Assembly: GCA_963737655.1 (NCBI GenBank)
Contig: CAVTTN010000002.1
Location: forward strand, 4,256,001 to 4,320,000
Source of the DNA: an uncultured Planctomycetota bacterium
GTDB taxonomy: Bacteria; Planctomycetota; Planctomycetia; Isosphaerales; Isosphaeraceae
Reading direction: 5' to 3'
DNA length: 64,000 nucleotides
Shown: piece after piece, positions 5,303 through 25,250 of the stretch
How the letters are laid out: every line of letters starts with the position of its first letter
Numbering within the stretch: position 1 is the first letter of the stretch
Notes under the pieces: model-generated
Databases searched by the model: none
What the model was told of the DNA's origin: nothing
Seen by the model: only the letters and a program-made list of their open reading frames with translations
Translations under genes and position numbers: made by a program

Positions 5303-5875
5303 CTACGCCCATCGATTCCGGCGTTCCGCGATCTCGACGCCCAGGGCGAGCGACGCCTTGCGGGCCTCCTGGATCGCCTCGGGAGGCCCGAGGGCGGCGG
5401 CCAGGTCGATGGCGCCCAGGATCGCCTTGGGCATCAGGTGAGGCGGGACGGGCACGTCCTGGACGCCGACCGGCGTGATGCTCCCCCCGCTCCAGAACGC
5501 GGCGACGGCGGCGAGCCCGGCGGGGTGGTCGTAGCCCGAGGCGAGCGAGGCGTCGAACGCCTTCCGGCGGTTGGCGTCCGAGGGCGAGGCCACCCAGGTT
5601 TCCGCGGCCTTCAGGGCGGCGAGCCGCTTCGGCGGAGCGGGCTCGACCAGGACCCCTCGGGCCACCAGGCACGCCCACCAGACCGCCTCCCTCCTCGGCA
5701 TCGCCTGGACGAGGAACGCCAGCGCATCGTCTAGCTGGCCCGACTCGGAGAGGGCCCGGAGGAAGTCTTCCGGTCGATCGCCCGGCGAGTGCTTCTCCAG
5801 GGCCGATTCGGACGGCTCGTACCCCTTGAGCACTTCCTCGGCCGAGGCGCCGGGCAGTTGGAGCAGCATCGCCAC
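5303..5875 (-). CDS. DUF6931-like protein (vgrG-associated)
   Basis: MPRREAVWWACL, AAETWV..PSDANRR, AVAAFWSGGSI; directly downstream of vgrG. Confidence 0.7.
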   Translation of the reverse strand: MAMLLQLPGASAEEVLKGYEPSESALEKHSPGDRPEDFLRALSESGQLDDALAFLVQAMPRREAVWWACLVARGVLVEPAPPKRLAALKAAETWVASPSDANRRKAFDASLASGYDHPAGLAAVAAFWSGGSITPVGVQDVPVPPHLMPKAILGAIDLAAALGPPEAIQEARKASLALGVEIAERRNRWA

Positions 5876-5969
5876 GGGTGTTCTCGCCCTTCTCGTCCCG
5901 GAGTTCCGGACGCGATGGGGGCCGGCTCATCGTCCAAGAGGAGCCGACCCCCATCCGTGTCCGGGATTC

Positions 5970-8162
5970 TCAGTTAATCATCGTGATCGCGCCCTGCATC
6001 TTCAGCATGCCGTCGCCGTTGATCTGCACCATCGTCCCCTGGACCTGCACCTCGATCGACCCCTGGAGCTTGATCATCATCCCCTTGAGGGTGATGCCGC
6101 TCTGGTCGATCGTGATGCTGTTGCCGCCGACCTTCAGGGTGATCGACTGCATGGCCTCCGTGGAGCTGGCCCCGAGGCTCACCTTGGTGGTCTGGTTGCC
6201 CATCTTGACCGTCAGCGAGTCGTTCCCCATCGAGACCTCGACGGTGCGGTTGCCGGTCTTGACGGTGTGGGAATCGTTGCCCGTATCGACGGTCACGGTG
6301 CGGTTGCCGGTCTTGACCTCGTGGGTGTCATTGCCGGTCTTGACCGTGACCGAGCGGTTGCCGGTGTTGATGACCGTGGTGTCGTCGGACTCGACGATGA
6401 TGTCGCGCTTCCCCTTGCTGACCTCGTGCTTGTCGTTGCCTTCCTTGACGGTGACGGTGCGGTTGCCCTTCTCGATCGTGACGGTCTCGTTCCCGGTCTT
6501 GACCGTCTCGGTGCGGTCCTTGTAGACGGTGATCGTCTGGTTGCCATCGACCAGGGAGCTGCTCCCGTCGACGCCAACGACCAGGGTGTCGTTGTTCTCG
6601 ACTTCGCGGAGGAAGTCCTTCTCCGCGTGGAAGAAGATCTGCTCGGAGCCCTTCTTGTCCTCGAACCGGAGCTCATTGAAGTTCTCGGACTCGCCCTTGA
6701 GGCTGGACCGGCTCTTGATTCCGCTCTGGGTGGCATTGTCCGGGAGCGTATACGGGACGGGGATGCTGCCGTTGTAGACCCGCCCGGTGATCAACGGGCG
6801 GTCGGGGTCGCCTTCGAGGAACGAGACGACGACTTCCTGGCCGATCCGGGGGATGTGGATCGATCCCCAGGTCTTGCCGGCCCAGGCCTGGCTCACGCGA
6901 ATCCAGCAGGAGCTGTTCTCGTCGCTCTTGCCCAGGCGGTCCCAGTGGAACTGGACCTTCACCCGGCCCTTGGCGTCGGTGTAGATCTCCTGGCCGCTGG
7001 TGCCCACGACCACCGCCGTCTGGTCGCCCAGGACTCGCGGCCTGGGCGTGAGCCTGGGCGGGTGGTAGGGCATCGCCTTGGCGATGCATCGAAATCGGTT
7101 CAAATATTCGAATGTCGCGTCCTGGGACTCCCCGGAGGTCGCGTCGATCACGTGCTCGACCCGGGTCAAGGCATAGTCGGCGTTGACCGTCGCGTCCGGG
7201 TGGTCGGAGAGCGTGAACGTGTAGCCCGGGACGAACGCCCGGCAATTGCTCGACCCCGAGGAGACGGCCCGACGGACGACCTCCTCCTCGACGCGGACCC
7301 GGGCCGTGGCGGTCATCAGGTCCGACGTCGGCGCCGAGTCGTGCTCGGAGGAGACCACCGAATCGGCGTAATCGTAGACCTCGTAGAGCGCGCTCCCGGC
7401 CGAGGACGACGAATTGCCGGAGATCTTCGTGTCGGGCTTGAGGAAGTCGTACTCGGCCAGGGTGACCTTCTTGGGATGGACCTCGTCGGACGTGGTCCAT
7501 TCCAGGACGCGCTCGTCCTCGCGGGTGCCGCCCAGGTGCATCTCGTAGACCATCGGGTTCGGGGCGCCCGGGACGGCCACGAAGACCGAGTTCACGTCGG
7601 CGATCACCATCGTGTGGGACGTCTTGGCGTGCTCGAAGAAGAAGAAGATCCCCTCGTCTTCCATCAAGCGATTGAGGAAATCCCAGGTCGTCTCCCGATA
7701 CTGGACGCAATAGGTTCGCTTGGTATAGGTCTTCTGGAGGGAGATCTTGAAGTCGGTGCCGGAGGTCAGGCCCATGTCGGTCAGGGCCTGCTGGAGGATG
7801 TCCTTGACGGTGAGGTCCTGGAAGATCCGGCAATCGACCTCCTGGCCGAGGAGCCAGGGCTTGGGGACGATCTCCGCCCGATAGAACGTGGCGTGCTTCT
7901 GGCCGGCGGCCTGCCCTTCGACGTCGCCCCGGGTCAGGCGCTTGACGATCCCGTGGAAGTAGCGGACCGGGGAATCGGCGACCTGGAGCTCGACGGCCAG
8001 GGGCTTGCCGAGGAACTCCGTGGGGGCGATGACGGTATCGGAAGAGAAATCGACGTCGAACAGGAACGGCTCGGAGACCGCTTCGTGGCCCCCGAGGCGG
8101 GCGATCCGCAAATCTTCGGAGGCGTCGCAGAGGATGTAGGCGGGGGATTCGAAGCTCGGCAT
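5970..8162 (-). CDS. vgrG: Type VI secretion spike protein VgrG with Gp5-like C-terminal beta-helix repeats
   Basis: YCVQYRETTWDFLNRLMEDEGIFFFF, GRVKVQFHWDR, SCWIRVSQAWAG, IPRIGQEVVVSFLEGDPDRP, NELRFEDKKGSEQ; ~8-aa VKTGN repeats; start set at MPSFES (8162). Confidence 0.97.
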   Translation of the reverse strand: MPSFESPAYILCDASEDLRIARLGGHEAVSEPFLFDVDFSSDTVIAPTEFLGKPLAVELQVADSPVRYFHGIVKRLTRGDVEGQAAGQKHATFYRAEIVPKPWLLGQEVDCRIFQDLTVKDILQQALTDMGLTSGTDFKISLQKTYTKRTYCVQYRETTWDFLNRLMEDEGIFFFFEHAKTSHTMVIADVNSVFVAVPGAPNPMVYEMHLGGTREDERVLEWTTSDEVHPKKVTLAEYDFLKPDTKISGNSSSSAGSALYEVYDYADSVVSSEHDSAPTSDLMTATARVRVEEEVVRRAVSSGSSNCRAFVPGYTFTLSDHPDATVNADYALTRVEHVIDATSGESQDATFEYLNRFRCIAKAMPYHPPRLTPRPRVLGDQTAVVVGTSGQEIYTDAKGRVKVQFHWDRLGKSDENSSCWIRVSQAWAGKTWGSIHIPRIGQEVVVSFLEGDPDRPLITGRVYNGSIPVPYTLPDNATQSGIKSRSSLKGESENFNELRFEDKKGSEQIFFHAEKDFLREVENNDTLVVGVDGSSSLVDGNQTITVYKDRTETVKTGNETVTIEKGNRTVTVKEGNDKHEVSKGKRDIIVESDDTTVINTGNRSVTVKTGNDTHEVKTGNRTVTVDTGNDSHTVKTGNRTVEVSMGNDSLTVKMGNQTTKVSLGASSTEAMQSITLKVGGNSITIDQSGITLKGMMIKLQGSIEVQVQGTMVQINGDGMLKMQGAITMIN

Positions 8163-8390
8163 GGCACGCCTCGGCGGGGGGGCCCGATCCCGACAGGACG
8201 GAAGGGATAGGCCGGAGGGGGCGATTCTGCCACGGAAGGGCGGGCCGGGGCAAGGCTCGGGGCGGGCCTCCCGGCGAATCCGTGGTATCCTTGCCACGTC
8301 CATCGGCCCTTGCCTGGAAGCGGCCGGTCTGTCAGGTTGGATAGAGAGCCGTCCCGTCACGAAGCGACCCCGCCACAGGAGGGCCCGACG

Positions 8391-11300
8391 ATGCCCCCGA
8401 CGGACCCACCCGCGAGGCCCCGGCCCAGTTGGAAACAGGCGAGCAAGCCCTCGGCCTCCCGGCGCAAGGCGTCGGGCCCGAAGTGGAAGAAGGACGCGGA
8501 AGCCGCGTCCGGAGGGACGGGACGCCGCTCCCGGGCCCTTCGCCTGGTGGGGGCGATCGTCGCGTCCCTGGTCTGTTGCGGCCTGCTGATCTGGATCGCC
8601 CTGTGGCTCCGACCGCTCCGGCCGTCCGGCCTGGTCCTCCTGGGGGCGGGCTATGAGACCGACCTGGCCGTCCCTCCGAACGTCGTGGGCTGGAACGGCC
8701 TGAAGGCCCTGACCGAGCTCGCTCGCCCGTCCCGGACGTCCCGAGGCCGGAGCGAGGCCGCGAGGTTCCAGGCCGCGGGCGACGGCCCCGCCCGGGTCGC
8801 CGAGGGGTCGGCCTGGGATGGCGACCTCGCCCGGGTCGCCGAGAAGACGGTCATCGTCGTCATGGCCATGCACGGCGCGGCCGATCAGCGGGGTCCGTAT
8901 CTGATCCTCGACGACGCCACGGCCGACGGCTCCGAGCGCCATAAGCTGCGGATCGAGGCCGTCCTGAACCGGCTCCGGCCCCTGGCCGAAGGGGGGAAGA
9001 ACGTCGTCCTGGTCCTCGACGCCACCCAGCCCCAGGCGATCTGGCCGATGGGCGTGATCCACAACACCTTCGCCGACGCCCTGAAGGCCATGGAGCCGGA
9101 GATCCTCAAGATCCCCCGGCTGATCGTCCTGAGCGCCAGCGACGTGGACCAGAGGTCGTGGGCCTCCGACGACTGGCGGCAGACGGCGTTCGTTCACTTC
9201 TTGATCGAGGGGTTGAAGGGCGCGAAGAAATCCGACCTGACGGCCTCGCGGAGGACCGACGGCCGGATCGACGCCCTCGAACTCTTCGAATTCGTCGAGG
9301 AGTCGGTGAGGAGCTGGGCGGCCACGAATCGCGAGGCCCTCCAGACGCCCGTCTTGCTGCCGACGGGGGCCGAGGGGCGGCGGAGGGCGTCGCGGATGGA
9401 GCTGGCCCTGGAGCCGTCCTCCTACGTCCCGCCCGACCCCCACCAGACGCCCGACCTGGTCTCCCCCCGGGAGCTCGCCGACGCCTGGGCCCTCCACGAC
9501 TCGTTGAGCAAGGGCGAGCCGAGTCCCGCGACCTACGCCCCTCGCCTCTGGAGGCTGTTCCGGGACAGCCTGCTCCGCTATGACGCGCTGGTCCGGGCCG
9601 GGGAGACCGAGAAATCGCCGAAGCTCAGCGCCGGGCTGAAGCGACTCGCCGAGGAGATCCGCCGGGCGGGGATCGTCGACCTGAAGTCGAGCCGGAATTC
9701 GTTCGCCATGACCGCCGCGACCGGCCGGCCCCGCTCCGGCAACCCCTCGGCCGACGCCCGGTTCCTCGCCCTCTGGAACGACCCGCCCGACGAGGCCGAG
9801 GCCCGCTGGAAAGGGTTCCTCGACGCCGCCAGCAACGAGGAATCGCGCCACGCCTTGAGGCGGATCGTCGCCGAGGCGGCGGTCCGCCGGGCGGCCGACG
9901 ACCCCGGGTCCGACCTGGCCAAGGCCCGGAAGCTCCTCGACCTGGTCTTGCCTCCCGGCGCGCCGGCCCCGGTCGAGGCGCACGACCTGATCCTCCTGGT
10001 CCGCGACCTGCCCGTCGCCCGGCCCCCGGCGGCCCTCCTGGAGACGATCTCCCTGGCGTTGAAGGTCCGGCTCAAGGCCGAGGAGGCGGCGGTGGGGGCG
10101 AGGTCCGAGGAAGTGCGGCCCTGGGTCGCCCCGATCGTCGCGCAGGCCGACCTCCTCCGCCAGACCGGCCGGGACCGGGTGATCTCCGCCGACCCGGCCG
10201 ACTGGGAAGTCGCCAAAAAGGAGCTCTCGGCGGCCGACGCCCTGTACGACAAGGCCCTGGCCTGGGCCTCGACGGTCCGAAACGCCTTCGCCGCGAGGGA
10301 CCAGGCCCTGGCCGACCTGCCGTATTATTCGCGATGGATCGCCTCGGGCCGGGGCTCGACCGGCTCGGCGACGACCCCGACGCCGCCTGGGCCGACCGCC
10401 TGGAGAAGCTCTGGATCGAGGTCCACGGCCTGGTCAGCGACCTGGAAACGCCGGCCGCGGCGCCCGATCGACCGGCCGACGGCGGCCTCGGCCTGGCCGT
10501 TCGGTCGTCGGCCGTGACCGACGGCCTGAAGGACGTGAAGACCCGTTTCGACACGATCTGGAAGGCCAATGAGCCGGTCGCCCAGGGATACTTCTGGGTC
10601 GCCGCCGAGTCGGCCCTGGTCGTCCCGTTCGACGATCCCGCCAGGCGGCTAGACCTGGAAGCCGACGTCCGCCAGGTCGGCCGCAAGCTCCTGATCGGCT
10701 CCGACGGCGGGGGCGGGGCCCGCCAGGGGGTCTCGCCCGAGAAGGCCCGAGATACCGCCCGGTCCCGGGCCCGCCTCCAGGCCCGGATGGCCCTGGCCAT
10801 CCTCGGCAATCGCCTGTTCGAGGAGATGCCCCCGGCCGATGGCCGCGAAGGGCTCGCCCAGGTCCGCGACCATCTCCGGGACGTCCGGTCCGGCGACGAC
10901 TGGTCCAAGCCGATCGACCTGATCGGCCGGCAGATCGGCATGCGATGGCGGGCGATCCCGGCCCTGATCAATCAGAGGGACGCCTCGGCCAGCAAGCCCG
11001 GGACGGCCTCCGCCCGGACCGACCTCCGGGCCGCCGACCGCCTCTCCCGGCAGATCGACGGGGCCCTGGCCGGGGCCGTCGGCGACGACCCCAGCCACTC
11101 CTATCGGGGACTCGTCCTCCGCGACCTCCTGCTGAACCAGGCCGCGAGGACCCTCTCCGACCACTGGTTCAGCGAGGATGAGGCGGCCGACCCGCCGTAT
11201 TATGTCGTCGAGGGCCGCGCCTATCTCGACGAAGCCTCGAAGCTCGACCCGAGGACTTCGCCCACGCCGGACCTCTCCGCGACCCTGGACCTCCGGCTCC

Positions 11301-13449
11301 GGGCCGATGGCAAGGTCCGCGTGACCGGGCCGAAGCGGCTCGTGCTGACCACCGAGAGGGCACTGGGCCTCGCCTACCGCCTGGACGTGCCCGAGGACGG
11401 CGACATCCCGGCCGGCTTCCCGGTCGTCTGGCTCGAGCCCGGCCGCGACCTCTCGGCCGAGGGGCCGTCGTCGGCCCTCCGCGCGGCGGTCCCGTTCGGG
11501 GCCGACGGCTCGCCGCCGATCCGAGGGACCGTGGCCTCGGAGTCGATCCGACGGGCCGAGGAGCACCCGCCGGAGGCCCCCAGGGTCGAGGGATCGGCCA
11601 TCGGTCTCCGGGGCCTCTATCGAGGCCAGGTCATCAAGCTCGACACGGCCGTGTCGGTCCACCCCCTCGCCGAGAATATCCTGGTCCAGGTCCCCCCGCC
11701 GACCCGGGCGAACGTCACCGTCCGGGCCGATCGCGACGTCCTCTCCCGATACGGCAGCAGCGGAGGCTCGCTCGCCATCGTCCTGGATTGCTCCGGGAGC
11801 ATGGGGGCGAAGCAAGGCCCTCCGGCGAAGTTCCAGGAGGCCACCAAGGCCCTCCGAGGGCTCTTGACCAAGGTGTCCCGCGGGACGAAGGTCAGCGTCT
11901 GGATCTTCGGGGAGGCCGTGGGGACCGCCCTGAAGGCCGAGGCCGAGCAGACCATCCGCCAGATGCTCCCGCCGACCGACTGGGACCCCGACGACTCCAC
12001 CGCGATCGACGCCCTGATGACCCGGCTCGAATATCCGGCGATCTATCCCTTCAACGAGTCGCCCATCCTCCGGACGATGATCCTCGCCCGAGAGGACCTC
12101 CGCAACGCGCCCGGCTTCAAGAGCATGATCGTCATCACCGACGGCATGGACAACCGGTTCCAGGACGACCCGGACTACAACCGCCAGAAGAAGGACGTGA
12201 GGACCGCCCTCCGCGACGCCTTCTCCGCCTCGGGGATCGAGGTCAACGTGGTCGGGTACAAGGTCGTCGGGCCGGAGGAAGAGGCCGCGAAGAAGCAGTT
12301 CTCGGTGGTCGAGGACCTGCCCGTCCCCGGGCGGTATTATGACGTGACCGACGCCCGGAAGCTCGCCGTGACCCTCGAACGCGCCCTCCGCCGCCGGCTC
12401 AAGTACCTGGTCGAAGAGCCCAACAACACGATCGTGGAAGGGTTCCCCGAGGGAGGTCTGGACGTGTCGGACCTGGGCGGGGGCGACCGCTGGTTCGCCC
12501 CGGCCTTCGACCCCGGGGGGTTCAAGCTGGTCGTCTCGGCCGACCGGACCCGGGAGAAGCGGATCATCCTCCGCCGAGGCGACCTGCTGCTGGTGGACCT
12601 CCTGGACGACCCCAAGGGCGTCGAGATCCGCCGGGGCCTGTTCACGCAGGATGACGAGCTGTACCGGCTCAAGCCGTCTCGCGAGAACGCGAGGAAGGAG
12701 TGGCGGCTCTCGGCCCTCCAGAACCGCTCGGTCGAGGGCAAGGGCCTCCAGATGATCGCGGCCCTGGAACGGCGGGTCGAGCCCGGGGAGACCGCCCTGG
12801 AGGTCATCCGGCCGAGGATGGCGTGGCTCGAGGCGAAGCCCTCGGAAGACGACGGCTCGGGGTATTCCTCCCGGTGGGGAGTGACCTACGACCAGCCCGC
12901 CCCGACGTGGGGCCTGAATGTGCCGAAGTGGCCGAAGTCGGCCGGGGCGTCGTCGCCGGCCCGGCCGGTCCTGACCGCCTGGTGGAACCCGGATCGCGAG
13001 ACGGCCCCGGCGGGGATCGTCGATCGCCTGGCCGATTACCGCTCGCTTCGCGACCTGACCGACCGGAAAGTCCCCCTGAAGACCGGCGGCGAGGTGATCG
13101 TCGAGTCCGTGGCGATCGAGACGCACCGGGTGGAGGTGGCCCCCGGAGTCCTCGACGATCGCTCGTGCCTGGTCGTCCGGCTCGCCTGCCCCGAGGGCAA
13201 GCCGTTCTGGTCCCGGCCGATGGGCCTGGACGCCGCCGGGTCCGAGCATCGGTTCTTCACCCGGGCGAACAAGTCCACCAGCCTGTTCTGGCCGGTCGAG
13301 CCCGACCAGGCGCTGGCGGGCCTGGCGCTCTACTCGGTCGCCGAGTTCAAGGCGGAGGCCGAGCGGAGGAAGTTCGTCGTGGAGCTCCCCCTCTCGCGCC
13401 GCCCGACCCGTCCGATCGCGGGCCGTTGCCGGTCCGGCTGGGTGAGTAG
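8391..13449 (+). CDS. Giant (~1,685 aa) single-TM protein: pseudo-caspase (C14-like) N-domain, helical middle, vWA domain; frameshifts near 10352 and 13395
   Basis: AGGAGG before ATG 8391; TM LVGAIVASLVCCGLLIWIALWL; MHG / VLDAT / LSAS..DQRS / GRIDALEL / QTP caspase-fold motifs; vWA IVLDCSGSM and VITDG; joins ORFs 8310.., 10334.. and the 3' end of 12700..13449. Confidence 0.75.
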
Positions 13450-13485
13450 CCCCGGAGTCGATCGGTGTCCCCAAGGAATCGGTGA

Positions 13486-16400
13486 GTGCCGCCCATGGAC
13501 GAGCCGACGACGCCCCCGACTCCCCCGCCCCGCCGATGGCGAGGCGAATCCGCGCCGTCTCGGTTCGCGCCCAAGCGGACGAGACGGCGGCGGATGTTCC
13601 CCCTGGCGCTGATGGCCCTGGCGCTGATCGGGGTCCTCGCGGGATTCGTCAGCCTGTTCCGCCGGGCCCCCAATCCCCTGTTCGTCCCCCTGGGAGTGAC
13701 CGAGTACCGATCCCGCCTGATCGCCCATCCCGCGCAGGTGGAGCACGACCTGGAGGCGCTTCGCCTCGGCAAGTACTTCACCCGGGTCGAGGCCGGGGGC
13801 GCCACGGGCGACCGGGCGGGCCTGATCGACGCCCTGGCCGCCCTCCGCGATCGCCCGGCGGGGGAGTCGGTGGTGGTGTACCTGGCGGCCCGGTCGTCGG
13901 TCTCCCCTTCGGGAGAGGTCCAGGTCCTCGCCGCCGACGCCGACCCGGAGGATTCGCGGACCTGGCTGCCCCTCCGCGAGGTCCTCGAATCGTTCCGCGA
14001 CTGCCCGTCGGTCCACAAGCTCCTGGTGCTCGACCTGGCCGACGCCGTGGTCGATCCCGGGCTCGGGCTGATCCTGGACGACGTGGGATCGCGCCTGCCG
14101 GGCGAGCTCCGCGCCGTGGCCGACCCGAATCGGCTGGTCCTGGCGTCGATCGGACCGGGTCAGCGGGCTTATTCGTCGCCCGACCTCGGCCGGACGGCCT
14201 TCGGGTTCTACTTCGAGGACGGCCTCCGAGGCTGGGCCGAGCGCAAGACCGCCGAAGGCCTGCTCGACGGGATCGTGACCGTGGGCGAGCTGGCGGAGTT
14301 CGTCCGCGCCCACGTGGATCGTTGGGCCCGGGCCAATCGCGGGGCCCGGCAGATCCCCACCCTCTACGGGACGGGCCGGGACTTCCCCCTGATCGCCCTG
14401 GAACGGGCCCGGCCTCGGCCCCACATCGAGCCTCCCGGCGACCTCCCGGCGTATCCCAAGATCCTCCACGACGCCTGGGCCAACCGCGACCAATGGAAGG
14501 CCGAAGGGCGGGACCGCGACGCCCCTCGCGCCTTCCGGATGATCGAGGCGCTCCTGCTCGAGGCCGAGCAGGAATGGAAGGCCGGCGCCGACGAGACGAA
14601 GATCAAGGCGAGCCACCTCAACCTGATCCTGGCCTTGAAGGAACGCTTGCTCGGGGCCCGAGAGATCCCCCACCCCCGCCCTCGGTCGATCGCCCTGGCC
14701 GAATCGCTCGGGGCGAAGCCCGACCGGGCGACGGCGGCGGCGCTCAAGGCGCTGACCGTCCGGTGGGACGCGCTGCCCCCGGCCAAGCCGGGCGATCCCC
14801 TGCCCGACCCGGCGAAGTTCGCCTCGGACCTGCTCGCCAGGCAGAAAGGCCGGCCGGAGATCGACCTGGCGTCCGCCGCGTTCGGGGCCGCCGCCGATCT
14901 GGACTCCCCCCGGCCCGAGGCGATCCGGTTCCTCGACGCGGTCCTCGCCCAGGCCCAGCCCCAGCCGATGTTCGTGGAAACGCTGGCCCTCCGCCGGCTC
15001 GCCGAGACCTCGCTCCTGCCCGGCTGGTCGCCCGAGTCGGCCCGGAGGCTCCTGGAGCTGGTCCGCGAGGGGGAAAAGGCCGAGGCGAACCTCGCCAGCT
15101 TCTCCTGGTCGAGCGCCCTGCTCCAGGTCGCTGCGGCCAAACGGACCGACGCCGAGGCGCTGTTCTTCTCCCCGGGATTCGCCCCTCGCGACCGCGCCGA
15201 TCGGCTCGTCCGGCAGGCCCTGGACGGATATCAGCGGGCCCTGGCCCGGGAATCCGCCGTGGACGAAGGCCGCAAGGCCCTGGACGACGCCATCTCCATC
15301 CTGCCTCCCCTGTCGGGGCTGCTCGACGACCAGCCCGACCTCCGACCCTCCTGGGACCGCGCGGTGATCGAGGCCCGGGCCGTGTTCTCGACCGTCGGGG
15401 GCGCGCCCGGGCCGACGTGGATGCCCAGTTGGACGACGTCCGTCCCCGGGTCGCCGAGCTCGCCCGATTCGTCGAGGACCTCCGCAGGCCGACCTCTCCC
15501 CGGGGAGTGGCCGAGGCGATCGAGCGATCGAAGGCGCCCACGGCCGGGGCGTCGTCCTACAACGAGCTGGAAGGCATCCTGAGCAGCCCCCTGCCCCGGG
15601 CCGACGACCGCCTCGCCGTCTGGAACGCGCAGAGGGCGCTCGGCGGCCGCCTCCTGATCGAGAGCCTCTCGGCCGATCGGGTGACGGGCCAGGTCGCGCC
15701 GAGGGTCCGCGAGCCGGATCTCACGATCGCGTCGCTCGAACGAACCGACCGCGAGCGGGCCCTGAGACGCGCCCGGGAATCGATCGACCTCCTGGCCCTG
15801 GGCGGCCTGGACGAGCCGACCCTGGCCGGCCTCCGCGAGGCGGCCCAGGCCGTCCAGCCCGACCTGCCGAACCCGAAACCGCTGGGCGACCTGGCGACGG
15901 CCCTCCTCGTGGCGTGGAAGACCGACGTGCCCGAGAAGCTCGCCCGGCTCCCGGCCGGTCGCGAGAGGCTGGGCTGGATCCTGCCGGGCCTCCGGCTCTA
16001 TCCGGCCATCGATGCCCTGCCCCAGGGCCCGCGGATGCTCCGGCGGATCGACCAGGCCCGGCCGTTGTGGACCTGGCTGGCCTCGAGGTACGAGGCCCGC
16101 GCCTCGGACCTCGACGGCTCCGCCTTCTTCGCCTCCGCCGCGAGGGACTACCGCCCGTTCGGCGAGCCGGCCCGGGTGGCGGCCGTCGAGATCGAAGGGC
16201 CCTCCGGGCCGATCGCCGTCTCGCCCTCGAGGCCGGCGGTCACGACGACCTTCCGGTTCCGGCTGACCTCGGCGGAGGCCCGGGACGCGACGGCGACCCT
16301 GGATCTGCTGACCCCCGACGACGAATGGTTGAGCGTCCGCCCCGAAGGCTCCGCCCCGGGCGATTCGGCCTCGCCGGGCCTGGCGATGGACCTCTCGGCC

Positions 16401-18212
16401 GGGGCCGCCGTGGAGGTGCCCGTCCGCGTCGAGCTCCGGCCCGACGCCGACGCCGCCCGGACCGCCCCGCCCCGCGGCTTCCTCGTCCGCGTCCGCATGG
16501 GGGACCGGACGTTCCATCGAGCCGTTCGGGTCTCGCTCGTCTCACCCCGGGAGCAGGTCCAGATCCTCCTGAGCGCCGACCCCAAGGAGCCGTCGGCCCC
16601 CCGGAATGACCTCCGGGTCCGGCCCACGGCCGAGAGGCTGCCCGTGTTCCTCTACGTGAGGAACCCGTCGGAGAAGGCCCGGACGGTGGTCGTCGAGATC
16701 GCGACCGACGGGGCCGTCCGGGGCGAGACGAAGCTCACCCTGGGCCCGGGGGACACGGTCCCGGCGAAGTTCGGCGACCCGGCGGCGAAGCTCGACCCGA
16801 TCTTGCCCGAGGTCCGCGAGGCGGTGGAGGTCCGGGTCCTGGACGGCGAGAACCGCGCCAACGTCCTCCAGACCCGCCGGTTCCCCGTGGCGATCGCGGC
16901 CCCCCTGGAATACCTGGGAGTCCAGGCGGCCCAGTACGAGCCTCCGTCGTCCGACAACGGCGGGAAGACCCGCCTGAGCATGACGCTTCGCGCCGTCGCC
17001 CCCCTGGGCAAGATCCCCTGCCCGGTCGAGATCGTCCTGCCTTCCGAAAGGATTCCCGGCCTCCTCGCGCCCGGATTGGGCACCTTCCGGGGGATCGTCC
17101 CGGCCGACGGCTCCCCCCTGATCCTCTTCGCCGAGGGTATTCGCCTGGCCGAGGGGGAGGACGAGACGGGTTTCGTCGAGCTCAACGTGGACAGCGTCCA
17201 TCGCGCCGTCGTGTTCCGAACGACCTTCGCCCGGCGGGGCGATCCCACCCTCCTGAAGGCCGAGACCGCGCCGGCCTTGAGGCTCCGGGCGGCCGATCAC
17301 GTCCTCTCCAGCGCGAAGTTCCCGGTGGTGGCCGAGGTGGACAACCCGCCGGCCGGCTCGAAGCTGGAGATCAGCCTCGGCCGATACACCCCGAGGGGAT
17401 TCCGGGCCGACCTGATCGAGGAATTGCCCGAGGCCCGCCGCAAGCACATCGGCTTCCTGCCCAACGGTCCCGGAGGGGCCTTGCTCCTGGAGGCATCCGA
17501 GGGCGATTGGGCGATCGAGCTCGACCCGAAGCGGATCATCGGCGGGCGAGACCTCCGGGCCAGGCTCCTCCGCGCCGATGACTCGGAGATCCTCTCGGTT
17601 TCGAAGCCCGTGGAGCTGGACGACCGGCCCCCTCAGGGCGTCCATCTCTCCGACCTCCCCGCCCGCGCGAAGAAGGGGGCGCCCCTGGCCGTCCGGGCGC
17701 TCACGGGGGCCTCCGAGGGGGAGATCGCCGAGGTCAAGTTCTTCCTCGGCCGACCGGCCGACGGCAAGCCCCCCGCGGGACCTCCGCCCACGCCCGGCAA
17801 GCCCGAGGACGCCGCGCGGACCGTCTGGAGCGCCACTTTGCCCCTGCCGTCCGACAAGGCCGGGCCGACCGAGATCAGCGTCCAGGTCACCAACGCCGTC
17901 GGCCTCAGCGGCTTCGATACCGCCGTGGTGGACCTCGTCGACAACCTGCCCGCGACCCCCGCATCGATCCGAGGGGTGGTCAACGAGGGGACGCGGACCC
18001 AGTCCAACCTCGCCGTGGTCCTGACCGACCCGAAGAACACCGAGGTCCGCCGGACCAAGACGGACAAATCCGGCAAGTTCGCCTTCGAGGACCTGCCTCC
18101 CGGCGCCTACACCGTGACGGCCTCGAAGGAGACGACCCGCACCAAGGGGAGCCAGAAAGTCGAGCTGACCCCGGGGGCGAGGCGAACGGTGGTCCTGGAC
18201 CTGTATCGGTAG
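13486..18212 (+). CDS. Giant (~1,575 aa) single-TM protein: pseudo-caspase N-domain, beta-rich region, C-terminal carboxypeptidase-regulatory-like domain; frameshift near 15400
   Basis: TM FPLALMALALIGVLAGFVSLF; KLLVLDLA, LVLAS..PGQRA, DGIVTVGELAEFV, QIP; C-term TKTDKSGKFAFEDLPPGAYTVTAS; joins ORF 13486..15582 to the 3' part of 13482..18212. Confidence 0.75.
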
Positions 18213-18305
18213 TCGTCCGCCCGCATCCCCGTGGGCCGGGTCGGAGGCGTCGCGGACCCGGAAGGCAGTCCCGGCGGCCCGTCCTCCGGGAGGCGCGGGC
18301 CCGGC

Positions 18306-19925
18306 TCACTTCGGCGAGAGCAGGATGCCCACGCCGATCGAGACGATGATCGTGACGACCAGCCCGGCATATCCAAACGTGGTCCATTTGGAGTAGTCGG
18401 TATCCTCGGCCAGGGCCGAGCGGGTCCAGGAGATGTAGTCCTGGCTCTCCGTGAGCCGGCGGAAGACGCCGGGGACGAAGGCTTGCTGGCGGGCCGGGTC
18501 GGGGCCGGTCCCGACGAGGTAGCAGCCTCCGAGCATCGGCGGGGCGCCCTCGACGAGAGTCCCCCGGATCAAGATCCGGCTGAGCCTCTTCTGGCGGTCG
18601 CGGACGTTCCTCAGGAGCTGATAGAGCTGGACATTCCCCTCGACCGTCTCGGTGAGGTCGGCCCCTCCGGCGGCCTCCACCCTCCAGAGCTTGTCGATCA
18701 TGTCGGGGAAGAGCTTGTTGCCGATCCACTGCACGCCGCTCTCGATCATCGAGGGGACGGCCGAGGGCTCCAGGTCGGGGACGAGCGGGAACCTCTGGCC
18801 CATCCGCCGTTCCTTCTGGCCTTCGGGCAGGCGCTCGATCAGTTGTCGGAAGCCGGGGAGGGCTTCGAGCTCGGTCACGACGACGAAGACGGGGCAGACC
18901 AGGCGGAAGACGTCCCGGGCCGAGGCGAGGTCCCTCTGGAGGATCGTCCCGGCCTGGCTCGCGTCGTCGTCGGAGTCGCACGAGGCCATCGGCAGGAGGA
19001 CGAGGATGCCGTTGATCGGGCAGAACGGCCGGCGGTCGCGGACGATCAGGCGGCAGAGGTGATGGAGGCGGGCCGAGAGCAGGTCGGCCTCCCCCTTGTT
19101 CTTGAAGATCGAGGGCCGGGCTCGGCCGGAGGAGGTCTCCTCGCTGGCCACGAGCAGGCCGATGGCCCTCTTCTCCTCGTCGAGGAGCTGGCCCATGCCT
19201 CGGCCCTGCTCCCGGGCCCGGGAGAGGATCGCCTCGACCGACTTGACCCCCTCGCCCTTGTTGCCGGCGGCGATGGTGGCGAAGGTTTCCTCGGGCGCCT
19301 CGACGGGGGTGGCCGTCTCGATCGAGCCGGGGCCGCCGGTCTCGGCGTAGAGGGCCGCCTGGCGGCCCAGGAGCGAGGCCCCGGAGCAGGTCACGTACAC
19401 GCCGTCGCGGTTGGCGAAGACCCGGACCGGGGCGTCCGACCGCCTCGGCACGCCCGCCACGTCCAGGGGCATCCCGGCGGCCTGGAACAGCGTCTCCTCG
19501 GCCGTCGCCGGCCGGCCCAGGACGAGGAACAGGGGCGTCTCGGTCAGGTCGATCCCGGCGGAGTCCAGCGAGCGGCAGGCCTCGGCCCAGGCGGCGTCCA
19601 CGTCGGGGAAGTCGGAGGATTCCTGCTCGGGCCCCAGCAGCTTCCAGAGGCTCCAGCTCAGCCAGCAGAGGACGTAGAACAGCGCGAAAAGCAGGGGGAG
19701 CCAGACGCTCCGCAGCGCCACCAGCCGGGTCGAGAGGTATTTCTCCAGCCCGAGGGCGTAATTCAGGACGCCCAGGCCGATCAGGATCAGGAGGACCAGG
19801 ACGAGGTGGAGCCCCCAGCGGACGGCCGGGCTCATCCCCCGGCCTTGCCGGGCCTTGGAGAACATTGGCAGGACCAGGCCCACCAGCCCCTTCAGGCCGG
19901 CGGCGATTCGTCGGAGGAACGTCAT
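18306..19925 (-). CDS. tssM: TssM/IcmF, N-terminal cytoplasmic portion only (539 aa)
   Basis: Two N-terminal TMs, PLFLVLG (degenerate Walker A), PINGILVLLP, PVFVVVTELEALPGF, LGGCYLVGTG, terminal TM then stop; follows tssL. Confidence 0.8.
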   Translation of the reverse strand: MTFLRRIAAGLKGLVGLVLPMFSKARQGRGMSPAVRWGLHLVLVLLILIGLGVLNYALGLEKYLSTRLVALRSVWLPLLFALFYVLCWLSWSLWKLLGPEQESSDFPDVDAAWAEACRSLDSAGIDLTETPLFLVLGRPATAEETLFQAAGMPLDVAGVPRRSDAPVRVFANRDGVYVTCSGASLLGRQAALYAETGGPGSIETATPVEAPEETFATIAAGNKGEGVKSVEAILSRAREQGRGMGQLLDEEKRAIGLLVASEETSSGRARPSIFKNKGEADLLSARLHHLCRLIVRDRRPFCPINGILVLLPMASCDSDDDASQAGTILQRDLASARDVFRLVCPVFVVVTELEALPGFRQLIERLPEGQKERRMGQRFPLVPDLEPSAVPSMIESGVQWIGNKLFPDMIDKLWRVEAAGGADLTETVEGNVQLYQLLRNVRDRQKRLSRILIRGTLVEGAPPMLGGCYLVGTGPDPARQQAFVPGVFRRLTESQDYISWTRSALAEDTDYSKWTTFGYAGLVVTIIVSIGVGILLSPK

Positions 19926-19971
19926 CGAGGGCTCTCGCGGTCGGGTCGGGTCGGGTCGGGCGGGCAGGCGG

Positions 19972-20664
19972 TCAGCCGAGTTGCTGGACGGCGAGGAAGG
20001 CGGCCAGGGGGATCAACATCAGGAGGACGACCCCGACGACCATCACCATCGTCCCGAATCGGTCCCGGCCGTGGAGGGGCGGGACGCTGCTCGGCGGCTC
20101 GAGCTCGGGCGGGTAGGGCCACTCCTGGGCCTGGTTCCGGGCCATCTGCGCCCGGGTCGCGGCGACCCACGCCTGGAGCTGGTCGGGCCTCTCGCGGAGC
20201 TCGCCCCGGAAGCCCAGCATCACGCAGAGGAAGAACACCTCGACGGCGTCCTTGCCCGACCTCGCCTCGGCCCGGCGGGCCTGCTCCCAGAACTTCCAGG
20301 CGCGGTCGTTCGTGCCGTAGAGGGCGACCTCCATCTTCTTCTCATTCCACTTCTCGCCCCAGGACGAGTCGAGGATGAAGACCTCGTCGATCCAGCAGAC
20401 CAGGGCGTAGCGGATGCCCAGGAATTGCTGGGCCCCTCTCCCTCGGACGTCCTCGCCCCGGTGGGCCGAGGCCGCCATCGTCTCGGCGCCGCCCTCGCCG
20501 CCGAAATCGCCCCAACGGCGGGCCTCCATCTCCGACAGGAGCAGCCCCTTGAGGGCCGCCTGCTCGATTTCGAATGCCGGCGCCTCGCCGCGCTCCAGCT
20601 TGGCCTTGAGCTGGAGCGCGTAGGAGATCACCGGGTGGACGAGGTTGACGATCGCGTCTTGCAT
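19972..20664 (-). CDS. tssL: TssL/DotU family T6SS membrane protein (no OmpA domain)
   Basis: YALVCWIDEV, W..KKME..LYGT, EVFFLCVMLGFRG, C-terminal TM; between tssK and tssM. Confidence 0.9.
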   Translation of the reverse strand: MQDAIVNLVHPVISYALQLKAKLERGEAPAFEIEQAALKGLLLSEMEARRWGDFGGEGGAETMAASAHRGEDVRGRGAQQFLGIRYALVCWIDEVFILDSSWGEKWNEKKMEVALYGTNDRAWKFWEQARRAEARSGKDAVEVFFLCVMLGFRGELRERPDQLQAWVAATRAQMARNQAQEWPYPPELEPPSSVPPLHGRDRFGTMVMVVGVVLLMLIPLAAFLAVQQLG

Positions 20665-20704
20665 GACGAGGGGTTTCCTCCCGGTCTCGCTGCCCGAGGC
20701 GAGA

Positions 20705-22159
20705 TCACGGGGCCGAGTCGGCCGGTCCGGTCCCGGCCAGGTCCTTCGGGACAACGTAGAGGGTGAACTGGAGGGTCGTGGTCTGGCCGCCGGTCTTGAT
20801 CGTCAAAACCCGCTGGCCCTGGATATTACCGGCGATCAGGTTCTCGTTCAACCGGATCGCCAGGGTCAGCGACTTTTGGACGTTCTGCCACTCCCCCTCC
20901 TGCGAGTCGCGGCCGACCTGGAAATAGATCAGCCCCGGCTGGGTGGGCAGGGCCCGAGGAGGCCGGGGAGTGTACCCGAACCGCAGCCCGGCCAGGCCCA
21001 TCCGGAAGATCGCGTCCACCCGCTCGCTCGAACCGATCTTCATGTCGAGCTGGCCGGCCTTGGTCAGCAGGCGGATCGTCTCCTCGATGTCCAGGGGCTC
21101 TGAACCCCCACGTACATCTGCCAGACCGACTCCAGCCACGCCGGCTCCAGCGCCACCTGCATCCGCAAGCCCGCCCCGATGAACGGCCGTTCCTTGTACT
21201 CGGGCTCGATCAGGATGTTCAGCAGGGAGTCGATGTGCTGCTTGACCCGGTAGAAACAGCCGCCGAGGTCGTCGTGGTCGTACCGGGGGAGCTCCGGCGG
21301 CCTCCGGGTGGCGCCGAAGATCGAGAGCTGGCCGACCAGACGGCACATCTCCACGTAGGCGCCGAACGGATGCACCCCTTCGGCGAACGCGAGGATCCCG
21401 AGGGTCGGGTACGCCGAGTTCAGCTCCCGCAACTGCTCGAAGATCAACGGGTCGCCCTGGGCCTGGCTGTCGAAGGTGATCCCCCGGGAGACGACCTGGT
21501 TGGCCAGGGAGCTCGATCTTCTTGCCCACCCGGTCATAAACCGCCTGGAGGATGCCGGCCGACAGCGGCGACCACGCCTCGCACGCCAGGACCGGCGGGA
21601 CGTAGGTCTCGTCGAGCTCCGGGGTGGCCTCGGCCCGGGGGGACTTCACCACCCGGGCGATCGGCAGGACTTCGTAGCCGGTATGGTCCTGGTTGGAGAG
21701 CAGGAGCTTGAGGTTGGGCAGGCGGACCTTGATCGGCTGGGGGTTCACCCCGGTGTTCTCGTCCTCGATCTGGAGGGTGGTCATCCGGTAGCGGACGCCG
21801 TCGGCGGCCCCCTCGCTCGCCACGTTCGGCTTGCCCGGCGAGACCACCGGCAGGGCGAGATACGCCGTGACCGAGTTGCCCTTCTCGAAGGCCGGCTTGA
21901 GGTCCAGGGGGGCGAGGACGCCATCCTCGGGCACCCGGACCAGCGTGCCGTCCCGGAACCGGGCCTCCAGCGAGCGGACCACCAGCCGGAAATTGCCCAG
22001 GGCGTCGCGATCGACCGAGACGGCCCGGAGGCCCCAGTTGTAATGGACGTCCCACTTCGACCCCAGGGCCGCCTGCTGCTCCCAGTGGCGGGTCGAGGCG
22101 TTGAAATGGTGGGGGCGGAGGAACATCCCTTCGTGCCAGTGGACCTCTCGGCTCGTCAT
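20705..22159 (-). CDS. tssK: TssK baseplate subunit; two compensating frameshifts (~21508, ~21095)
   Basis: VHWHEGMFLRPHHF, YVPPVLAC, middle section in ORF 21064..21537 (HPFGAYVEMCRLVGQL, PRYDHDDLGGCF), PPRALP....IYFQV. Confidence 0.92.
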   Translation of the reverse strand: MTSREVHWHEGMFLRPHHFNASTRHWEQQAALGSKWDVHYNWGLRAVSVDRDALGNFRLVVRSLEARFRDGTLVRVPEDGVLAPLDLKPAFEKGNSVTAYLALPVVSPGKPNVASEGAADGVRYRMTTLQIEDENTGVNPQPIKVRLPNLKLLLSNQDHTGYEVLPIARVVKSPRAEATPELDETYVPPVLACEAWSPLSAGILQAVYDRVGKKIELPGQPGRLPGDHLRQPGPGRPVDLRAVAGAELGVPDPRDPRVRRRGASVRRLRGDVPSGRPALDLRRHPEAAGAPPVRPRRPRRLFLPGQAAHRLPAEHPDRARVQGTAVHRGGLADAGGAGAGVAGVGLADVRGGSEPLDIEETIRLLTKAGQLDMKIGSSERVDAIFRMGLAGLRFGYTPRPPRALPTQPGLIYFQVGRDSQEGEWQNVQKSLTLAIRLNENLIAGNIQGQRVLTIKTGGQTTTLQFTLYVVPKDLAGTGPADSAP

Positions 22160-22398
22160 GGCGGCGGAATCTCCCTCGGTCACCCGGACGGGCGCGGACC
22201 GGGCCCGTCGGCCCCTCTGGGAGAGACTATGCGGCCTGAATCGGGCCAGGGCAAGGGGTTTCTCCATTCCGGGCCGACTCGTCGCCGAGGGCGGCCCACC
22301 AGCGGATTGCGCGAACGGGTCCCGCAGGGCCGGCCCTGGCCCTCGGGGACCGGCGGAGACGGCCCGCCCCTCGGGGCGCAAGCCGACCGAGGTCCGCC

Positions 22399-23694
22399 CT
22401 AGACCAGCAGAGACCGCTTGTCCTCGGGGACTTTCTCGAACGACGAGATCTTGCCCTCGAGCTCGTCGATCTCTTCCTTCATCCGTGCGATGCATTTGTT
22501 CAAGTAGTAGAAATTCTTGGCGTCGTCGGTCATGAGGTCCATCCGGTAGCCCCGGGCCAGGGTCGGCAGGTAGACGAGGGTCCGGAATTGCCGGGCCCCG
22601 GCGAGGTACAGGTCGCTGAAGCCGATCGAGACCGAGGCGTCGGTGCTCACGCCGATGCCGACGGCCAGGGTCGTGCCGAACTGGAAGACGGTCGGGCCGA
22701 AGATCGGCGCCTTGACCGACGCCGAGAGCGAGGCCCCCACGCCGATCGCGATCCCCGCGGTCGCCTCCAGGCCGAGGAGCGTCTTGCCGTCCAGGGCGAA
22801 GGAGCAGGAGCCGGTGGCCTCGGCGCGGAACCCGACGAACGCCTCGGCCGCCAGGGCCGCCTCGATCCCCTTCAGGGCGCTCACGCTGAGCTTCGCCTGG
22901 CCCGAGGCCCTCGCCCCGGCGAAGCATTCGCCGCTGCCGGCGAGCTTCAGGGACGCCGAACCCTTCTCCCACTGGAAATTCCCGTTGACTTCGAGCAGGG
23001 CGCCGACGGCCACCGCCGCCTGGAGGCTGGCGTTGAAGCCCAGCTTCGTCATCTTCGCCGACGCCTCCCCGCTGGCCCAGGCGCCGGCCTTGAACGATTC
23101 CTCCAACGCCCCGCTGACCTTCCCCCAGTTCGCGCTGTAACCCTCGAACTTGAACGAGGCGTCCTGCTTCAGGCCGATCATCCCGTCGAACGCCGCCTTG
23201 GCCGATTTCGCGTCCCTCTGGCTCGACGCCGTGAGCTCCCGGACGCACTTGGCCTGGTATTCCGCCTGGTAGCTCAACGGGTCGCAAAGCGAGGCGTCGT
23301 GCTCCTCCATCGCCGTCTGGAGCCGGAGGAAGAACGAGGCCCCTTCCTGGTAGTCGCCCCCCTGGAGCCACATCTCCAGCCTCTCGACCATCCCCTGGGC
23401 CGAGGCCAGCTCCTCCTGCCATCCGGCCAGCCTCAGAGACGACTCGACCTTGCCCGGCTTCGTCGGTTCCTGGGGCCAGTCGCTCGGCTGGGGGAACGGC
23501 TGCTTGAAGATCAGGAAGTACTGGGCCTCGACGATCTTCCGGTTCGTCTCGCTCCCGGCCGCCTGGTAATAGGCGACGCACTTCTTGACCCGCTCCTTCT
23601 TCGAAAAGAAGAACCCGTTGTAGCCGTTGAACTTCTTGCGAACGTAGGTCTTGACGGTCTCGGGGTTCGAACTCTGGAGCTTGGTGAGGTCCAT
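22399..23694 (-). CDS. Hypothetical 431-aa protein, candidate T6SS effector, Gly/Ala beta-hairpin-rich C-half
   Basis: Clean ORF, Lys-rich, no signal peptide, upstream of tssK on the same strand; ECFAGARASG / EAFVGFRAEATG repeats. Confidence 0.7.
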   Translation of the reverse strand: MDLTKLQSSNPETVKTYVRKKFNGYNGFFFSKKERVKKCVAYYQAAGSETNRKIVEAQYFLIFKQPFPQPSDWPQEPTKPGKVESSLRLAGWQEELASAQGMVERLEMWLQGGDYQEGASFFLRLQTAMEEHDASLCDPLSYQAEYQAKCVRELTASSQRDAKSAKAAFDGMIGLKQDASFKFEGYSANWGKVSGALEESFKAGAWASGEASAKMTKLGFNASLQAAVAVGALLEVNGNFQWEKGSASLKLAGSGECFAGARASGQAKLSVSALKGIEAALAAEAFVGFRAEATGSCSFALDGKTLLGLEATAGIAIGVGASLSASVKAPIFGPTVFQFGTTLAVGIGVSTDASVSIGFSDLYLAGARQFRTLVYLPTLARGYRMDLMTDDAKNFYYLNKCIARMKEEIDELEGKISSFEKVPEDKRSLLV

Positions 23695-25002: not shown

Positions 25003-25250
25003 CGCTCCCAGGCCTCTCTCTCCGCCCGAATCGAGGCATCCACGTCCTCGCGACTCGGAGGTTGATGGCCTCGAAGTCTTTGACGATCGCGGATCGCCTC
25101 CATGACGTTTCGGTAGGTGCTCGGACCCGGCGGGGTCGTCAGCGGCTCGACCACCACGCGGACCCGGCCCGGGATCATCGGCAAGGGTTCATCGAGGTTC
25201 ACGGTCTTCGAGTCGGTCAAGGTTCCCGTGACCGAGTAGGATTCTCTCAC
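24999..25250 (-). CDS. Putative antitoxin
   Basis: 83 aa, 4-bp overlap with PIN gene; GTL..SKTVNLDEPLP..PGRVRVVV, C-term IRAEREAW. Confidence 0.75.
   Translation of the reverse strand: MRESYSVTGTLTDSKTVNLDEPLPMIPGRVRVVVEPLTTPPGPSTYRNVMEAIRDRQRLRGHQPPSREDVDASIRAEREAWER

Follow-up and report, generated by a model that had tools for sequence, protein, structure and literature searches.

A Planctomycetia type VI secretion locus with a short TssM and two giant membrane-anchored proteins

The locus and its short TssM

This report concerns a variant type VI secretion system (T6SS) carried on a 64,000-nucleotide stretch of DNA (the window; C2:4256001-4320000) from an uncultured planctomycete of the family Isosphaeraceae, whose genome (G000), 87.7% complete, comprises three contigs totalling 7.63 Mb. 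An earlier note on this DNA had described tssK, tssL and tssM in canonical order, a TssM of 539 amino acids that stops 3 residues past its last transmembrane (TM) helix, and two giant single-TM genes, here called G1 and G2, filling the gap between tssM and vgrG. All of this is borne out. The three tss genes lie on the minus strand, the TssM tail reads ...GILL-SPK, and the giants occupy the entire gap; it can be added that the two giants share the plus strand, in convergent orientation to tssM and divergent orientation to vgrG. The features, in window positions, are as follows.

5303..5875, minus strand: DUF6931 protein (PF22011, E 2e-45); adjoins vgrG in many related loci
5970..8162, minus strand: VgrG spike, ~730 amino acids, with a gp5 C-terminal trimerisation domain (PF05954, PF04717, PF22178); start at 8162
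8391..13449, plus strand: G1, ~1686 amino acids; basic N-terminal tail, single TM helix, pseudo-caspase domain, helical stalk, beta-sandwich, VWA domain with intact MIDAS, C-terminal beta domains
~13486..18212, plus strand: G2, ~1573 amino acids; basic N-terminal tail, single TM helix, pseudo-caspase domain (no His/Cys), helical stalk, chain of beta-sandwiches, terminal CarboxypepD_reg domain
18306..19925, minus strand: short TssM, 539 amino acids (PF14331, E 1.3e-14, its sole Pfam match)
19972..20754, minus strand: TssL, DotU domain and C-terminal TM helix, no OmpA domain (PF09850, E 1.2e-21; TIGR03349); likely start near 20664
20705..22159, minus strand: TssK, frameshifted twice (PF05936; tblastn with an intact orthologue; ATG position)
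22399..23694, minus strand: 431-amino-acid orphan upstream of tssK, no Pfam or NCBIfam match

The window TssM consists of two N-terminal TM helices, a cytoplasmic IcmF-N domain devoid of a Walker A motif, a third TM helix and the three-residue tail; there is no periplasmic domain, and the model TIGR03348 scores it at 23 bits against a cut-off of 388. A homologue search that spanned lengths of 296-944 amino acids returned 559 sequences, of which the best 120 are 467-595 amino acids long. The tail beyond the last helix is at most 12 residues in 115 of these 120 (mostly 1-12). The Walker A motif GxxxxGK[TS] occurs in one of the 120 short TssMs, versus nine out of nine long ones. Because this length is conserved across 120 homologues, the tssM stop is not a sequencing error and the short TssM is a conserved family. 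The conservation of the stop also answers, indirectly, the earlier note's concern that a read-supported error at this position would undo its reading. Short-tssM loci (79, drawn from the best 80 of 203 confirmed) bear titles that nearly all read Isosphaeraceae, Gemmataceae, Pirellulales, Planctomycetaceae or Planctomycetota, from which we take the window's class to be Planctomycetia. Loci L069, L072, L084 and L132, titled Alcaligenaceae or Alphaproteobacteria, may be mislabelled bins or transfers; all four genomes also have strong matches to the domain shared by G1 and G2 (see below). In 21 of the 79 loci a Ser/Thr kinase gene, and in 7 an ECF sigma gene, is found at most 10 kb from tssM; as both families are abundant in these genomes, this proximity may be due to chance.

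Several genes are interrupted by frameshifts in this assembly, at about 10352-10400 and 13390 in G1, 15306-15429 in G2, and 21508 and 21097 in tssK. Intact orthologues of the giants are found in genomes G024 (1702 and 1629 amino acids) and G029 (1701 and 1775), measured as stop-to-stop frames. The absence of an OmpA domain from TssL, noted earlier, is confirmed, DotU being the sole match besides the C-terminal helix. It is not a special trait, since a TssL with no peptidoglycan-binding domain is already known (available text of PMC13584744). It is likewise true, as had been claimed, that no tssJ-like lipoprotein gene precedes tssK: no open reading frame (ORF) with a lipobox was found from tssK to position 25100. 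The 431-amino-acid orphan was considered as a TssJ substitute and rejected, as it has no lipobox and no match in any fetched T6SS locus. It has 15 full-length homologues (38-47% identity, unnamed) and a Gly/Ala-rich C-terminal half, and is not a conserved part of the system. The DUF6931 gene follows both vgrG copies of the genome (window 5303-5875; C2:1886057-1886596), as it does in many relatives, and probably encodes a spike adaptor or chaperone.

Distribution in the class Planctomycetia

The class was surveyed in 251 genomes, namely 250 of at least 90% completeness plus the window's own. The TssM profile matches 111 of them and TssF also 111, with both in 107. The longest open frame among the 150 TssM matches listed is 822 amino acids. 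IcmF_C rises above its cut-off in G201 only, a genome with a canonical TssM of 1382 amino acids. This gene (C97, locus L161) was possibly acquired or mis-binned; the genome has no TssF match and no strong match to the giants. TssJ (PF12790) is matched in none of the 251 genomes, by a model that missed five of seven TssJ-like lipoproteins of sister classes, and PF06761 in none of 81 class genomes. The window's own genome, at its 87.7% completeness, has no IcmF_C, PF06761 or TssJ match, nor any match to custom profiles made from the C-termini of long planctomycete TssMs and from their TssJ-like lipoproteins. A full-length tssM, or an IcmF_C gene plus tssJ, elsewhere in this genome would have told against the earlier note; none was found with these weak profiles. 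A stronger argument is positional. No conserved ORF that could stand for the TssM C-terminus or TssJ lies beside tssK, tssL or tssM in the 79 loci, and none was seen in ~100 further fetched stretches.

The N-terminal domain common to G1 and G2 (the G domain) was used as a profile over the same genomes. At E<=1e-30 it is found in 96 of them, 92 TssM-positive and 95 TssF-positive, and none is devoid of both; 95 of 96 strong carriers thus have TssF, and the giants are not the mostly unlinked family that would have refuted the earlier proposal. At E<=1e-6 it matches 180 of 251 genomes, including 110 of the 111 that are TssM-positive. Nineteen TssM-positive genomes give weak scores. Loci were fetched for 15 of these, and a divergent G-domain gene sits among the T6SS genes in 10; the other 5, one of which is G201, have none there. 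Outside the class, a sample of 90 genomes from the phylum's other classes contains 8 with TssM frames of 1182-1583 amino acids, and in 7 of the 8 a lipoprotein-like ORF lies ahead of tssK. These other-class genomes have no G match at E<=1e-30, the best (5.5e-25) being a 708-amino-acid protein with a full Peptidase_C14 match. The short-TssM complex is a class-typical variant; within the genomes sampled it was confined to one class.

Of 31 near-complete genomes, 18 have a G gene no more than 30 kb away from tssM, against a rough chance of 0.016. In eight genomes (G098, G071, G171, G218, G137, G253, G056 and G226) tssM stands co-directionally between two giant genes with neither tssK nor tssL adjacent; the upstream giant in G071, G137 and G218 was recognised by size and TM helix alone. 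Giant pairs usually comprise one VWA-type and one CarboxypepD_reg-type member.

The remaining T6SS genes of the window's genome are spread over several clusters, which together hold tssA, B, C, D, E, F, G, H, I and K, ClpV included. A second short tssM, at C2:4.006 Mb, is accompanied by a third giant gene, G3, and by tssA-H, and a further tssA-B-C-hcp-tagJ-E-F cluster lies at 7.53 Mb. The second locus (C2:4000040-4025225) represents another subtype, not mentioned in the earlier note and seen only in the window's family, with a TssM of ~490-510 amino acids in relatives, a single G3 of 1300 amino acids in which no VWA motif was detected, and an FHA gene. In a quick-method tree of the G domain G3 is monophyletic (99), and G1 and G2 are clustered but not cleanly resolved. 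Away from the other T6SS genes of this genome, the region C2:6768634-6776362 holds a TssB-TssC fusion ORF downstream of a 991-amino-acid unknown ORF and of genes resembling GrpE and Hsp70. Two tandem tssC genes are present in several Planctomycetia T6SS loci (L049, L056, L059, L221).

The giant proteins and two outer-membrane candidates

G1 and G2 are paralogous over ~1050 residues (hhalign probability 100, 985 columns). The long members of their family number 116, of which 99 have a scorable N-terminal helix, 17 having been dropped as truncated or helix-less. The helix is single in 97 of the 99, and lysine and arginine are more frequent before it than after it in 96. This positive-inside pattern suggests that the ectodomain is periplasmic. 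The CarboxypepD_reg and Ig-like domains at the C-termini are of kinds usually met in extracytoplasmic proteins.

All modelling was done on intact orthologues, the window copies being frameshifted. The model of a G2 orthologue (residues 60-1259, pLDDT 84.9) presents a caspase fold, ~590 residues of helices and then beta-sandwiches. The caspase fold (model residues 1-250) superimposes on caspase-6 with Z 20.2 (rmsd 2.7, 208 residues aligned) and on MALT1 with Z 19.3; Raptor chains rank at the top in Foldseek, and there are weak PF00656 and NF047832 matches. The model of a G1 orthologue (residues 503-1702, pLDDT 89.0) shows helices, a beta-sandwich, a VWA domain and further beta domains. Its VWA domain matches 8s05_B with Z 20.0 (rmsd 2.2, 174 aligned), with ArnB among the matches. 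The MIDAS motif DxSxS...T...D is well kept in G1 (D 46, S 45, S 46, T 44 and D 45 of 47 rows).

The catalytic positions of the caspase domain are those that we take to correspond to the D-x-C and H-G motifs. At the nucleophile position G1 never has Cys, Thr212 being present in 48 of 48 rows, while His161 is present in 46 of 48. In the window the His-Gly pair is residues 161-162 (8871-8876) and the Thr site residues 210-212 (9018-9026). More divergent VWA-type members, for example in L052, do not have the His. In G2 the nucleophile position is Met in 36 and Ala in 12 of 62 rows, Cys is not among the six commonest residues, and the consensus has no conserved His. The label "pseudo-caspase" given in the earlier note is therefore apt, a caspase fold having been modelled for the G2 orthologue and the catalytic Cys being gone from both proteins. 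A sequence search of the Protein Data Bank (PDB) with the G domain gave nothing significant, so that this fold is seen by modelling alone, and an Atlas search with G1 gave no usable match. No TssM or TssJ chain is among the matches listed for either model; these lists are filled by caspase and VWA hits, and the stalk and beta domains are barely probed by them. Pfam and NCBIfam scans of G1 and G2 gave no TssN, Q, O, P or R family match, direct sequence comparison with TssNQOPR not having been made.

Clustering of the genes neighbouring T6SS loci yielded two more envelope candidates that the earlier note does not mention, a HEAT-repeat protein that is exported and rich in Cys, and a probable beta-barrel. 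In the window's genome they are found as follows.

C2:7535146-7536429, minus strand: HEAT protein, exported, Cys-rich; directly upstream of tssA
C2:7536820-7538439, plus strand: COG4313-like barrel candidate whose N-terminal extension is rich in Cys; oriented divergently to the HEAT gene, heading the tssA-B-C-hcp-tagJ-tssE-F cluster

The HEAT protein is present in 96 of the 251 genomes, 91 of them TssF-positive, and several homologues carry a lipobox. The barrel is matched at E<=1e-30 in 78 genomes (74 TssF-positive) and at E<=1e-80 in 54, all TssF-positive. Of the 24 near-complete genomes that have the barrel, 20 encode it no more than 5 kb from the HEAT gene. Within 30 kb of tssM, tssF or a G gene, the HEAT gene is found in 18 of 28 and the barrel gene in 17 of 24 near-complete genomes. 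In G043, G147 and G135 the HEAT gene sits between both G genes. TssF-positive genomes without a HEAT match belong mostly to the window's family, and all 8 of them that were fetched carry the one-giant G3/FHA subtype. The barrel assignment stems from weak PF13557 matches in three out of 12 scanned sequences (the best at E 3.2e-5 and 3.6e-4), an aromatic C-terminal residue and Atlas clusters with 12-21% PF13557 members; it had no match among PDB sequences. On this evidence the PF13557-like protein is probably an outer-membrane barrel. A second, frameshifted barrel paralogue (C2:3253774-3255204) has no T6SS gene within ~14 kb.

A proposed membrane complex, its alternatives and its relatives

The part of the machine that is specific to T6SS is the membrane complex, whose core, in every TssM-containing system that we found described, is the periplasmic domain of TssM. 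We consider it probable that in Planctomycetia G1 and G2, with the HEAT and barrel proteins, form a lineage-specific periplasmic module replacing the TssM C-terminal domain and TssJ. TssL and the truncated, NTPase-dead TssM would retain no more than the base in the inner membrane and the cytoplasmic platform on which the TssK baseplate docks, and the periplasmic part would be supplied by the paralogous single-pass proteins G1 and G2, anchored N-in with their helices packed beside those of TssM. The dead caspase domain would serve as a scaffold at the membrane surface, and the helical stalk of ~600 residues would cross the periplasm. The heads would differ, a metal-binding VWA domain in G1 and a chain of Ig-like sandwiches in G2. 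Outer-membrane contact would be made through the Cys-rich HEAT protein (often with a lipobox) and the COG4313-like barrel, both from T6SS sub-clusters. A fuller version of this proposal, in which the undescribed envelope assembly of Planctomycetia has a base of TssL and half a TssM, a G1-G2 heterodimer bridging the enlarged periplasm and a HEAT-lipoprotein/barrel landing site, the G1 His/Thr pocket being possibly active, is judged slightly less likely than not. If true, an integral barrel in the outer membrane would be a permanent component of this T6SS, for which we know of no precedent in any other T6SS.

Several observations weigh against the proposed replacement. At E<=1e-6 the G domain also matches 70 TssM-negative genomes, where there are many weaker relatives, including caspase-like proteins unrelated to T6SS. 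At E<=1e-20 the table is less clean (100 genomes with G and TssM, 11 with TssM only, 11 with G only, 129 with neither); the cut of 1e-30 was picked after the scores had been seen, and the clean table depends on it. Because related genomes are not independent, only counts are given, with no P values. Linkage is not obligatory, as a G1/G2 gene lies within 10 kb in only 19 of 42 full-flank tssM loci (two further ones have G-domain-only matches), and the 20 kb fetched for each of G087 and G142 holds the giant pair but no T6SS gene. Thirty-seven of the 111 TssF-positive genomes are without a barrel match and 20 without a HEAT match; most genomes that have the G3 subtype alone match neither with these queries, leaving their outer-membrane contact unexplained. 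A small single barrel is presumably too narrow for the Hcp tube, so that the barrel could only be an anchor. The direct contact of the giants with TssM or TssL is something that we infer. PF06744 missed all five of the long TssMs of sister classes on which it was tried, which makes the Pfam negatives weak, and the custom C-terminal profile missed four of nine in a leave-one-out trial. Finally, the His-Gly pair and invariant Thr of G1 may indicate a ligand-binding or catalytic role beyond scaffolding.

This last point bears on the alternative that fares best, namely that G1 and G2 are accessory sensors, positioning factors or assembly triggers, like TslA or TagQRST, rather than a channel. The VWA domain and the His/Thr pocket would then sense a ligand, and the guide would be made by other proteins or not be needed. 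The conservation of the MIDAS (45-46 of 47 G1 rows), of His161 (46 of 48) and of Thr212 (48 of 48) agrees with such a role, as does the frequent location of the G pair in another sub-cluster than tssKLM, often beside vgrG. Against it stand the near one-to-one presence with the short TssM, the absence from the long-TssM systems of the same phylum and the G-tssM-G gene order, and clustering of the neighbours of 79 loci revealed no other conserved large periplasmic candidate. We regard this alternative as unlikely, though it deserves to be kept in mind.

It is less likely still that the system is anchored in the inner membrane only and fires into an enlarged periplasm or after lysis, G1 and G2 being anchors or having their large domains in the cytoplasm. 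Neither the TssM periplasmic domain nor TssJ was found, planctomycetes have an extended periplasm (available text of PMC12673574), and many cytoplasmic proteins have caspase-like or VWA folds (ArnB was among the matches). Against this stand the positive-inside pattern of 96 of 99 G proteins and the fact that an exported HEAT protein accompanies the system, as does a barrel-like protein whose last residue is aromatic. Complete sets of TssA-H, VgrG and ClpV are retained, too.

A third possibility, that TssM is merely split and that diverged genes for its periplasmic half and for TssJ were missed elsewhere, draws on the poor sensitivity of the profiles (PF06744 missed 5 of 5 long TssMs, PF12790 5 of 7 TssJ-like lipoproteins, the custom profile 4 of 9). 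We judge it quite improbable, given that no conserved ORF of this kind was seen beside tssM, tssK or tssL in 79 loci or in ~100 further stretches, that PF06761 had no match in 81 class genomes, and that the G models match caspase, helical, VWA and Ig folds, with no TssM chain among the matches listed. That the locus is decayed or mis-assembled and its TssM a pseudogene is scarcely credible: tssK, G1 and G2 are frameshifted here, as are genes of the second locus, but TssM is unbroken and within the same length range in 120 homologues, intact G1, G2 and TssK orthologues exist in many genomes, and frameshifts scattered over unlinked loci look like long-read assembly errors.

A class in which 111 of 251 sampled genomes have TssF seems to run its T6SS without the periplasmic domain of TssM. 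This provides a natural test of the minimal membrane complex, a base for TssK plus any rigid periplasmic guide. It bears on how an enlarged periplasm can be crossed, would give a bacterial example of a caspase fold turned to use as a scaffold, and names four testable genes for cultured planctomycetes. Annotation by TIGR03348, PF06744 and PF12790 scores these systems as incomplete, so that they are likely undercounted. No description of this architecture was found in the open full-text literature, subscription papers and supplements lying outside that search. The terms "Planctomyc", "caspase" and "barrel" are absent from a 2026 review of T6SS accessory factors, and "secretion system" from a 2025 review of Planctomycetota. 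The available text of PMC9113992 names Planctomycetes as T6SS carriers without detail, and that of PMC3482391 contains nothing on these genes.

With the canonical T6SS(i) and its TssJLM complex the present system shares the tssK-tssL-tssM order, a TssL with DotU domain and C-terminal TM helix, the N-terminal helices and IcmF-N domain of TssM and a full TssA-H/Hcp/VgrG set. The baseplate, tube, sheath and ClpV genes of subtype i and its TssL are therefore all here, whereas the large periplasmic domain of TssM is gone together with the Walker A motif. TssJ was not found either (PF12790 in 0 of 251 genomes, by a model of low sensitivity, and no lipobox ORF ahead of tssK). In enteroaggregative Escherichia coli (EAEC) the periplasmic pillars are made of TssM and TssJ (available text of PMC6517824); the candidates for that place here are two unrelated proteins of 1.6-1.7k amino acids. 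The Acinetobacter complex (TsmK, TslA, TagX) likewise has no TssJ and has co-opted a pseudo-enzyme, the pseudo-ketoacyl synthase TsmK, as a stabiliser (available text of PMC10564176 and PMC13584744). There, however, TssM keeps and extends its periplasmic domain, and the pseudo-enzyme of the present system is instead a caspase fold fused to an anchor and a stalk.

The pseudo-caspase domain resembles in fold the clan CD caspases and metacaspases (Peptidase_C14), including the scaffold domain of Raptor. It differs from them in having no catalytic Cys (Thr in G1, Met or Ala in G2), in having the His only in G1, and in being membrane-anchored, predicted periplasmic and followed by a stalk with VWA or Ig heads. 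The barrel candidate resembles COG4313/PF13557 (Phenol_MetA_deg) barrels in its weak Pfam matches and C-terminal aromatic residue, and is set apart from them by its Cys-rich N-terminal extension and by an E<=1e-80 subfamily confined to TssF-positive genomes (54 of 54).

The T6SS(iii) of Bacteroidota is built with a TssNQOPR complex of single-TM periplasmic proteins, PKD domains and a VWA-bearing lipoprotein (available text of PMC10781749). The likeness, at the level of domain types only, extends to single N-terminal TM helices, Ig/PKD-like domains (TssP), helical rods (TssQ, TssO), a VWA domain (on the lipoprotein TssR) and homologues confined to T6SS carriers. That subtype is marked by the absence of TssL and TssM, both of which are present here and kept as a base, and the available account describes no caspase-fold domain in it. 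The planctomycete system would thus be a hybrid, in which a proteobacterial TssL/TssM base carries Bacteroidota-style single-pass VWA/Ig proteins.

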